Shown: piece by piece, positions 39,216 through 40,828 of the stretch
Numbering within the stretch: position 1 is the first letter of the stretch
How the letters are laid out: each line of letters opens with the position of its first letter
Translations under genes and position numbers: made by a program
From: Escherichia phage 212
Length of the DNA: 64,000 nt
Strand: one strand, 5' to 3'
Sequence record: PQ765507
The notes under the pieces: model-generated
Database searches by the model: none
Told to the model about the DNA's origin: nothing
What the model saw: the letters and a program-made list of their open reading frames with translations, nothing else

Positions 39216-40181
39216 ATGATGTTAGTTATTGGTTCTCGTGCATTACATAACGCTGGTCTGATTGAAAGTCAGAAAATTGAAAACTCTGATTGGGACTTTA
39301 TCGCTGACCAGGGTTCTTGGAACAGTTTTAAAACCCAGATGATGGGGCAGCACGTGCATGTGGATAACCCAGATGTTCAAGCTTTTAAATGTATGCACAA
39401 TGGTAAAGAAACCTATTTTGAAGCTTATATTGTCCGTGCCCTGACCAACGTACGAGAAATTACTGGTGAGCTTCAAGATGAAGATTTCACCTCAAGTTAT
39501 CGTCTCTTGAAATACGCTGAAAATCATATTAAGAAAGACCGTCTTACAGGTTTCTATTGGGCGACGCCTGATATTTGTCTGGCGATTAAATTGTCTCATC
39601 GTTACCTGAAGAACAACCCATTCTTCCTGAAGACCATGAGTCATATTAATTATCTTCGCAATAAGGGTGTTGTTCTTAATGATGAACTGCAGAAAATCAT
39701 GCTGCAGCGTCAGGCAGAAACACTGTCATACAGTCACCCTAAACTAGACGTGGGCAAGAAAACTTTCTTTAATGATACAATCTACACCCTTGACCATGAC
39801 TCCATCCACGAGGCTGTGGCGCTTGCTGATAAGCCTGCATATAAGTTTTATATGAAGGATGATTCAGAAGTCATGACCTCGCGTGAAAAATTTGAAGCAC
39901 TCCCTGAGATTATTAAACTGGCAGGGGTTTATGAAGAAGCATGTGTGCTCGCTCTGGAGCGTTCGCAGGTTCCTAATGAGTTCAATATCTCTCCATCCGT
40001 GAGCTTCCATATTGCGCTGGAAAAAGTCTGTACCTCCATTACTTCTGGATGGTTCCGCACCTTCGCATATGAAAATTACGGTAAAATTATAAGTATGTAT
40101 AATGCTTTAGGTCATGACGATTATATTAAACGTTTTAAGGCTAACCAGCATTTAATTAAACCATTCAAAAAGGATGAATGA
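39216..40181 (+). CDS. hypothetical protein, possible nucleotidyltransferase-like N-terminus
   Basis: 321 aa; N-terminal IGSRALHNAGL...SDWDF (GS ... D-x-D, non-canonical spacing); GAGGAAAATATTATG RBS box. Confidence 0.5.
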   Translation: MMLVIGSRALHNAGLIESQKIENSDWDFIADQGSWNSFKTQMMGQHVHVDNPDVQAFKCMHNGKETYFEAYIVRALTNVREITGELQDEDFTSSYRLLKYAENHIKKDRLTGFYWATPDICLAIKLSHRYLKNNPFFLKTMSHINYLRNKGVVLNDELQKIMLQRQAETLSYSHPKLDVGKKTFFNDTIYTLDHDSIHEAVALADKPAYKFYMKDDSEVMTSREKFEALPEIIKLAGVYEEACVLALERSQVPNEFNISPSVSFHIALEKVCTSITSGWFRTFAYENYGKIISMYNALGHDDYIKRFKANQHLIKPFKKDE

Positions 40182-40828
40182 TGGGAAGACCATTAGAAGA
40201 TTTGACTGGTAAAATTATTAATGGAATCAAATTTGTTTCGGTAGCATATAAAACCGCTGGAGTTTCTACTAAATGGAATTGTATTTGTCATTGTGGTAAA
40301 GAGTTTGTCACAGCCGCCGCCCGTATAAAATCAGGTAAAACCAAATCGTGCGGCTGTCAGAAATATCATTATTCATTTATTTCTGACAAACCTACGTATT
40401 CATCGTATGCTGCCATGATTGAAAGGTGTACAAATCCTAACCATCATCGTTGGAAGCAGTATGGTGGCGCTGGTGTACAAATATGTGATAGGTGGCTACC
40501 AAAGGGAAAAACTGGTTATTTGAATTTTGTTGAAGATATGGGTATTCGTCCAGCAGGTACAAGCATTAATCGGATAAATTCATGTAAGCTATACAGTAAA
40601 GAAACTTGCGAATGGGCTTCATTATCAATACAGTCATTTGACCAGGATACCCGAAAAGATTCACCTGGTCCAATTACAGGTGTCAAGTTTAGAAAAGACA
40701 GAGGTAAATGGATATCATATATTACTGTTAATCATAAAGAAATCCAACTTTACTATGGTGATTCTCGCGACGAAGCAATAGAAAGACGACGCGCCGCTGA
40801 ATTGAAATATTATAATAGACAAAAATAA
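40178..40828 (+). CDS. homing-endonuclease-like protein with Cys-rich N-terminus and C-terminal AP2-type DNA-binding domain
   Basis: 216 aa; CICHCG...CGC and NPNHHRW segments; C-terminus GVKFRKDRGKWISYITVNHKEIQLYYGDSRDEAIERRRAAELKY resembles AP2 domains. Confidence 0.5.
   Translation: MMGRPLEDLTGKIINGIKFVSVAYKTAGVSTKWNCICHCGKEFVTAAARIKSGKTKSCGCQKYHYSFISDKPTYSSYAAMIERCTNPNHHRWKQYGGAGVQICDRWLPKGKTGYLNFVEDMGIRPAGTSINRINSCKLYSKETCEWASLSIQSFDQDTRKDSPGPITGVKFRKDRGKWISYITVNHKEIQLYYGDSRDEAIERRRAAELKYYNRQK

Follow-up and report, generated by a model that had tools for sequence, protein, structure and literature searches.

A recently transferred gene of a T4-like phage encodes a putative IPA-HNH-type homing endonuclease whose central domain has no catalytic histidine

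Results

The window analysed in this work, a stretch of 64,000 nucleotides (nt) from Escherichia phage 212 (sequence record PQ765507), is a section of a T4-like phage of the genus Gaprivervirus, to which, among public genomes, Shigella phage SP18 and Escherichia phage VR7 are most closely related. The window takes in the variable block of small genes that precedes nudE, e (lysozyme) and denV, and within this block, at the end of a gene with DUF7277 and DUF7275 domains, lies the subject of this report, a real, recently transferred selfish gene that probably encodes a homing endonuclease. The open reading frame (ORF) exists as the original prediction, made from the sequence alone, had described it (Table 1); that prediction placed it in a hyperplastic region, and this block of small genes shows another presence/absence difference as well. 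The same gene is known from GenBank as VR7 gp135, where it is labelled ‘hypothetical’, and in RefSeq as a ‘restriction endonuclease’. The protein matches PHROG 374, labelled ‘HNH endonuclease’ (E=4e-59), and has 113 homologs at E<=1e-3; scans of the whole protein against Pfam and NCBIfam gave no meaningful match.

The first ATG of the ORF (40178) overlaps the stop of the upstream gene as ATGA, and the second (40181) gives a TGATG overlap. The latter is probably the true start, yielding a protein of 215 aa that begins MGRPLEDL, since all homologs start with MGR and an AAGGA stands 6 nt before the second ATG. A scan for sigma-70 promoters and intrinsic terminators returned nothing above background near the gene.

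Table 1. Features of the insertion locus and of the encoded protein (window coordinates)
Feature	Position	Strand	Remarks
Upstream gene, DUF7277 + DUF7275, PHROG 2141	39216..40181	+	function unknown; conserved 3' end is the probable homing target; homologs immediately precede relatives of the inserted gene in 5 phage and 3 metagenomic lineages
VR7-type block in an SP18-type genome	40025..40880	.	informative-site run analysis, sliding identity
T4 middle-promoter-like motif	40103..40127	+	MotA box TGCTTTA, 12-nt spacer, TATATT; 50 nt upstream of the start
Insertion point	40164..40166	+	Phe codon of the conserved ...HLIKPF C-terminus of the upstream gene; from junction alignments
Shine-Dalgarno-like AAGGA	40170-40174		upstream of the start of the homing-endonuclease-like ORF
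Homing-endonuclease-like ORF	40178..40828	+	216 aa from the first ATG; stop TAA 40826-40828
CapR-type zinc-finger DNA-binding module, N-terminal	40193..40357	+	aa 6-60; C35/C37/C39 ... C58/C60
Central ‘IPA-HNH’-type domain	40379..40648	+	aa 68-157; two helices and a predicted beta-beta-alpha element; without Pfam model
Predicted beta-beta-alpha element, candidate active site without catalytic His	40562..40642	+	aa 129-155; from secondary structure and conservation
AP2-type DNA-binding domain, C-terminal	40673..40813	+	aa 166-212; three strands and a helix
Hairpin, 10-bp stem and 6-nt loop	40843..40868	+	in the spacer, just before the ribosome-binding site of the next gene

Among 263 related T4-like records the gene is carried by VR7 and VR26 only (4/263), with 99.1% amino-acid identity. 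The original suggestion to look for an uninterrupted locus in related phages proved fruitful, as the relative EAWsc9 has an empty spacer of 59 nt at the insertion site. SP18 carries there (positions 4243-4467 of locus L002, equivalent to window ~40170-40830) an unrelated ORF of 74 aa, gp131, which belongs to PHROG 22890 and is of unknown function. With the gene in the window, nothing in EAWsc9 and gp131 in SP18, the site is found in three alternative states. In gene-less relatives the Phe codon that marks the insertion point is directly followed by GAAAAATAA and then GTGTGTACATCC; the empty-site junction of SP18 or EAWsc9 reads ...CATTTAATTCGTCCTTTC joined to GAAAAATAAGTGTGTACATCC..., and the upstream gene of the empty site ends ...CCTTTC GAA AAA TAA before GTGTGTACATCC. 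The insert of the window starts right after the Phe codon, and its ORF ends CAA AAA TAA, again followed by GTGTGTACATCC (40821-40840, AAAAATAA joined to GTGTGTACATCC). This end matches that of the empty site, so that the displaced terminal codons of the upstream gene have been reused.

The gene lies in a tract of VR7 type that extends beyond it in both directions, by ~150 nt into the 3' end of the DUF7275 gene upstream and by ~50 nt into the spacer downstream; on either side of this tract the window is ~100% identical to SP18. Within the gene 6 of 651 nt differ from VR7 (4 synonymous and 2 non-synonymous changes), and the next gene is 78% identical to its VR7 counterpart; the VR7-type allele of the upstream flank is confined to phages with the gene. 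The pattern is one of co-transfer, or co-conversion, of donor flanks, by which ~855 nt from a VR7-like donor entered an SP18-like genome. Two features of homing genes are both found here, namely patchy occurrence at a single site that is empty but intact in other close relatives, and co-transferred flanking donor sequence. The transferred block also contains the middle-promoter-like motif of Table 1, which the window shares with VR7 and which the alleles without the gene, those of SP18 and EAWsc9, lack. Motifs of this kind (TGCTTYA, 11-13 nt, TANNNT) occur seven times in the window against 1.26 expected, a number reached in none of 100 shuffles; the seven sites are at 28671, 32627, 37274, 40103, 48273, 54175 and 59993. 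Judged by the known T4 middle-promoter consensus, the motif at 40103-40127 would drive expression of the gene.

The same insertion site is used in other phage lineages. Relatives at 43-68% identity directly follow a DUF7275 homolog in Dhakavirus, phage ECO111 5-P, Aeromonas phage CC2, Phapecoctavirus nepoznato and three metagenomic lineages, and a more distant sister subfamily adjoins DNA ligase instead. The gene is more conserved than its neighbour in nepoznato (63% vs 41% identity) and in CC2 (58% vs 45%), which points to later transfer into the same site. Only two phages of Phapecoctavirus carry it (3/82 records), so that this genus displays an independent filled/empty polymorphism. The filled nepoznato and the empty nieznany agree at 100% up to a point ~150 nt ahead of the insertion, from which identity falls to 84%, 66% and 56%; after the 667-nt insertion it lies at 36-76% for ~350 nt and then returns to 100%. 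Here, too, the insertion follows the Phe codon of a conserved KPF motif, and the inserted ORF ends with displaced codons (EGGY followed by a stop). The nepoznato copy (L006 2501-3172) has an in-frame stop at codon 28, with only the C-terminal 110 aa annotated in RefSeq, as ‘HNH endonuclease’, and an intact version (P0003) is found in metagenomes; the stop marks this copy as decaying, which is what one expects once a selfish nuclease gene has entered its decay phase. We regard the mobility of the gene and its site specificity as well supported and very likely to be correct.

An AlphaFold2 model built from a 46-sequence family alignment (pLDDT 90.3) divides the protein into three modules. The N-terminal module is small and beta-rich, with conserved cysteine sets flanked by strands, and its residues 6-60 align with residues 131-185 of the relative P0092 at 49% identity (E=7e-14). 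Pfam scores that segment of P0092 as CapR PF21817 with 34.2 bits (cutoff 24.2); the window protein itself has no direct match to PF21817. In the family alignment C37, C39 and C58 are invariant or nearly so, and the CxCxC-18-CxC spacing is identical to that of the essential cysteines of CasPRIB1, as compared by the description in the respective paper. The original prediction had noted this cysteine cluster; given its homology to the P0092 repeat and its CasPR-like spacing, it is a separate zinc-finger DNA-binding module of CapR type and does not belong to an HNH core. A possible paralog at window 49479-49553 proved to be the zinc site of thymidine kinase. The C-terminal module is modelled as a three-stranded sheet on a C-terminal helix, as in solved AP2 domains, and among PDB sequences the family profile finds the AP2 domains of WRI1 (E=6.6e-6). 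The window protein has no match to Pfam AP2 PF00847 (gathering score 33.3 bits) at E<=10, and 11 of the 46 homologs match this model at 23-26 bits, below the gathering score. The AP2 domain that had been predicted is retained on the grounds of its fold and of the family profile, without the Pfam match for the protein itself. Both the CapR and the AP2 assignments are well supported.

The beta-beta-alpha element of the central domain is predicted to consist of strands 129-132 and 144-147 and a helix 149-155, which would place N131-R132 last in strand 1 and Y139 in the loop; strand 2 would contain T143-C144-E145-W146, and the helix Q152 and D155. Conservation was assessed in the 46 family members and in 271 domain copies from 150 diverse representatives. 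In the two samples, respectively, R132 is present in 46/46 and 270/271, Y139, in the loop between the strands, in 46/46 and 266/271, and Q152 in 44/46 and 256/271; in the diverse copies R132, Y139, N143, Q152 and N155 are all nearly invariant. The candidate metal ligands are D131 and N155/Q152 in the family consensus, and N131, Q152 and D155 in the window protein. An acid/amide covariation of positions 131/155, together with the 131/145 pair, was considered as a retained metal site and set aside, as it mostly reflects two subclades; by strand register, positions 131 and 145 probably form a structural cross-strand pair. The NPNHHRW segment, proposed in the original prediction as a degenerate HNH core, sits in a loop of the central domain, and its histidines H89 and H90 are not conserved in the family alignment; we have abandoned this proposal.

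Related proteins vary in what lies between the flanking modules. P0091 holds a canonical HNH_3 domain (26.1 bits, cutoff 24.8) in the same CapR...AP2 frame, P0096 has a classical HNH domain in the same CapR-based frame, and P0092 and P0103 have CapR repeats and AP2 with nothing between. This variation identifies the central position as a swappable effector slot, and the canonical HNH_3 domain of P0091 identifies it as a nuclease slot. The near-invariant polar set of the domain which fills it here would fit a chemical site better than a variable base-reading surface.

The closest described counterpart is the IPA-HNH family. Our family profile aligns with ICP1 gp59 over 156 columns in hhalign (97.6% probability, E=4.7e-12), pairwise BLASTP giving only E=0.01, and the protein combines gp59 homology with the C-terminal AP2 domain that characterises the family. 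According to Barth et al. 2023 (PMC10448857), the IPA-HNH domain, of which gp59 is the prototype, is too divergent for the Pfam HNH_3 profile and is accompanied by a C-terminal AP2 domain. The family is defined in that work by bioinformatics only, and a literature search for its biochemistry found no report. The window gene resembles those of ICP1 gp59, gp115-116 and gp209 in its central domain (homologous in gp59), its C-terminal AP2 and its invisibility to Pfam HNH_3, and also in that these genes are free-standing, sporadic and located at the boundary of exchanged sequence blocks. It differs in the additional N-terminal zinc finger of CapR type, a module that Barth et al. associate with T5orf172 homing endonuclease genes (HEGs) rather than with IPA-HNH, and in having R132 where gp59 has Lys. 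Its home is a DUF7275 gene of unknown function and not a polymerase, RNR or terminase gene, and it resides in a T4-like phage, whereas T4 itself has no such gene (PMC10448857).

A search of PDB sequences with the central-domain profile gave chance matches only. The alignment by hhalign of the central domain with five HNH_3 domains was not significant (5% probability), its register being driven by the AP2 linker, and neither was that with I-HmuI (2%; sequence verified against PDB 1u3e), for which the best register, equally lacking significance, pairs N131/D74, R132/H75, T143/N87, W146/W90 and Q152/N96. In common with I-HmuI and HNH_3 (PF13392), the protein is predicted to have a helix followed by a beta-beta-alpha element; it differs from I-HmuI in having Arg for the catalytic His and Gln for the metal-binding Asn, and its gene is free-standing whereas that of I-HmuI is intron-encoded. 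The top structural match, but a weak one, is PacI (PDB 3m7k/3ldy), to which the central domain has no sequence similarity. PacI, which belongs to group 20 of Jablonska et al. 2017, is an enzyme in which a loop Tyr replaces the His (PMC5714182, PMC4081073); it differs from the window protein as a homodimeric restriction enzyme that carries two Cys4 zinc sites but neither an AP2 nor a CapR module.

The combination of a CapR-type zinc finger with AP2 is shared with the CasPR repressors and PLE CapR (bioRxiv 10.64898/2026.02.23.707548; PMC8096241), and the essential cysteines of CasPR, C33/35/37 and C56/58, have the same spacing as C35/37/39 and C58/60 of the window protein. The CasPRs have helical linkers where the window protein has a conserved, predicted beta-beta-alpha domain of ~90 aa between the modules; their genes belong to acr loci of temperate Bacillota phages, and they work without any cutting, whereas the window gene is a mobile insertion in a lytic T4-like coliphage. 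We do not count the protein among the CasPRs, as it has the nuclease-like ~90-aa domain and such a host.

Among the free-standing homing enzymes of T4, the Seg proteins are GIY-YIG and the Mob proteins canonical HNH enzymes, both with demonstrated cleavage. Like the T-even Seg and Mob genes, the window gene is a free-standing insertion of the kind that sits between conserved genes or at the end of one; it is scattered among close relatives, has short co-transferred flanking tracts and apparently has a promoter of its own. It differs in that its product belongs to neither family and that its cleavage is putative.

Further features of the region are recorded here for completeness. The hairpin downstream of the gene (dG -21.5 kcal/mol for a 62-nt stretch, z = -2.98) is kept with one G-U change in the empty site of EAWsc9 and is hence part of the recipient locus rather than of the mobile gene; as it is without a U-tract it is not a canonical terminator, and its role may lie in the processing, stability or translational control of the downstream gene. 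Window 38400-39020, ~600 nt with the small ORFs 38413-38640 and 38824-39024, is present in SP18 and EAWsc9 and missing from VR7. The 5' part of an e.2-like membrane-protein gene (41574-42161) shows at 41600-41800 only 56-79% identity to all three relatives, in surroundings that are 94-100% identical to SP18, and represents a further mosaic patch. Between e and denV, an ORF of 89 aa (43372-43641, plus strand) is absent from VR7, SP18 and EAWsc9, a gap of ~300 nt in all three alignments. It starts with MKTYQEFLAES, like the ORF at 44114-44416 (plus strand; MKTYQEFITES), and this N-terminus resembles the one by which internal head proteins of T4 are targeted to the capsid; ORF 43372-43641 may accordingly be an extra internal protein gene. 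Several public annotations look like mis-transfers, among them ‘prohead assembly scaffold protein’ and ‘tail sheath monomer’ on small early genes of vB_EcoM_005 (L005), and ‘malate synthase’ and ‘transposase’ on ORFs of ~75 aa in EAWsc9 (L003).

Discussion

We consider it probable that the gene belongs to the free-standing homing endonuclease genes of IPA-HNH type and that its product itself cuts DNA, and our confidence in this statement as a whole is held at that level by its last part, as we infer the cutting from the other observations. In such a scheme the CapR-type zinc finger and the AP2 domain would jointly recognise a long DNA site, and the His-less, predicted HNH_3-like beta-beta-alpha domain, the only candidate catalytic module, would supply the chemistry. 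During a mixed infection the protein would bind the conserved 3' end of the DUF7275 gene of an element-free phage, in the sequence encoding ...N-Q-H-L-I-[KR]-P-F, which is its presumed target, and would nick or cut there, whereupon recombinational repair would copy the gene with short flanks from the donor. Tyr139 may take over the role of the absent His, as a loop Tyr does in PacI, and the metal may be bound by N131 and Q152/D155; this proposal is made by analogy to that enzyme.

Several results weigh against catalysis by the protein. Neither the protein nor, at E<=1, any of 33 central domains matched a Pfam HNH model (PF01844, PF13392 and others). The catalytic His at the end of strand 1 is absent from all 46 family members and all 271 domain copies, Arg standing in its place in all but one of the latter, and at the key polar positions the window subclade has N-R-Y-T-Q-D vs the family consensus D-R-Y-N-Q-N, a difference at three of the six. 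The central domain is also extraordinarily abundant, as a search with it alone retrieved 127,584 cluster representatives at E<=1e-3 and 108,790 at E<=1e-10. The best 150 of its matches (P0114-P0263) all have 2-4 tandem copies, some with nothing else, e.g. P0145 of 208 aa, and the polar set D-R...Y...N...Q..N is kept in each tandem copy; arrays of this kind, often without any other domain, would be more typical of binding modules. The original identification of a homing-endonuclease-like protein with HNH and AP2 domains has accordingly fared unevenly: mobility, gp59 homology and the three modules speak for it, the profile search that it called for gave sub-threshold AP2 matches for homologs, and it is the catalytic His and any Pfam HNH or AP2 match for the protein itself that are missing.

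The alternative that survives best, although we consider it unlikely, is that the protein is a nuclease-dead, sequence-specific DNA binder, either a domesticated relative of homing endonucleases or a repressor akin to CasPR and CapR. The CapR, AP2 and degenerate beta-beta-alpha domains would then block transcription or another process, for instance by silencing a gene that serves host defence or belongs to a co-infecting phage, and the patchy distribution would stem from ordinary recombination in the hyperplastic region or from a nuclease acting in trans. Beyond the universal replacement of the His by Arg, the failure of HNH profiles and the arrangement of the central domain in arrays like DNA-binding beads, this alternative can draw on the loss, in the window subclade, of the Asp and Asn aligned with D74 and N87 of I-HmuI as well. 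Proteins with CapR and AP2 and the same cysteine spacing have been shown experimentally to be repressors, PLE CapR is a domesticated HEG domain, and His-Me fingers without both His and Tyr are known as DNA binders, e.g. Smad MH1. However, the linkers of CasPRs are helical only, and nothing in them corresponds to a ~90-aa domain with a near-invariant polar set, and an invariant Tyr in the omega loop is the very feature by which PacI retains catalysis. Moreover, it is difficult to see how insertion at the same codon, diverged flanks and an independent filled/empty polymorphism could have come about in an unrelated phage lineage without a site-specific break. Across lineages the gene is better conserved than its neighbour, and the copy with a premature stop suggests that the gene is dispensable to the phage.

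It is considerably less probable still that the gene is a functional partner of the upstream DUF7277/DUF7275 gene, adjacency reflecting function in a two-gene module whose DNA-binding member would regulate its neighbour or cooperate with it. Such a partnership would account for the fact that every relative with at least 43% identity has the gene immediately downstream of a DUF7275 gene, in many cases with stop and start codons that overlap, and a start that overlaps the upstream stop suggests translational coupling. However, the DUF7275 gene occurs without it in 259 of 263 T4-like and 79 of 82 Phapecoctavirus records, and one inserted copy, that of nepoznato, is a pseudogene beside an intact partner, which makes the pairing unlikely; the sister subfamily adjoining DNA ligase and the discordant divergence of gene and neighbour point in the same direction. 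A chance ORF or annotation artefact, for which only the absence of Pfam matches for the protein itself could be cited, is refuted by the homologs and the PHROG 374 match, by the confident three-domain model and by the excess of synonymous over non-synonymous differences from VR7.

Conclusions

In itself the gene is an ordinary one, being 99% identical to VR7 gp135 and a member of a putative homing endonuclease family named in 2023. It is noteworthy that the transfer event can be resolved so well, that a family widely annotated as HNH endonuclease has lost the catalytic His throughout, and that the central domain is so numerous and yet uncurated. The locus preserves a clean natural record of transfer, in which donor type, recipient type, breakpoints and empty site can be identified, with an independent replicate in an unrelated lineage, and together these records define the 3' end of the DUF7275 gene as a candidate recognition site. 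The ‘HNH endonuclease’ labels of RefSeq and PHROG rest on a domain without the catalytic His in every copy examined, and whether the family cuts DNA is a directly testable question. As the domain is very abundant, occurs in tandem arrays and has no Pfam model, settling its function would re-annotate very many proteins. We tentatively advance, with slightly less than even confidence, the broader proposal that it represents a very large uncurated class of His-less beta-beta-alpha nucleases, of more than 100,000 clusters at 50% identity, with PacI-like chemistry in which the invariant loop Tyr and the invariant Arg would replace the general-base His, and that this class drives many phage homing elements. 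Should this be true, many phage elements now labelled ‘HNH endonuclease’ or ‘hypothetical’ would be homing elements with a His-less nuclease.

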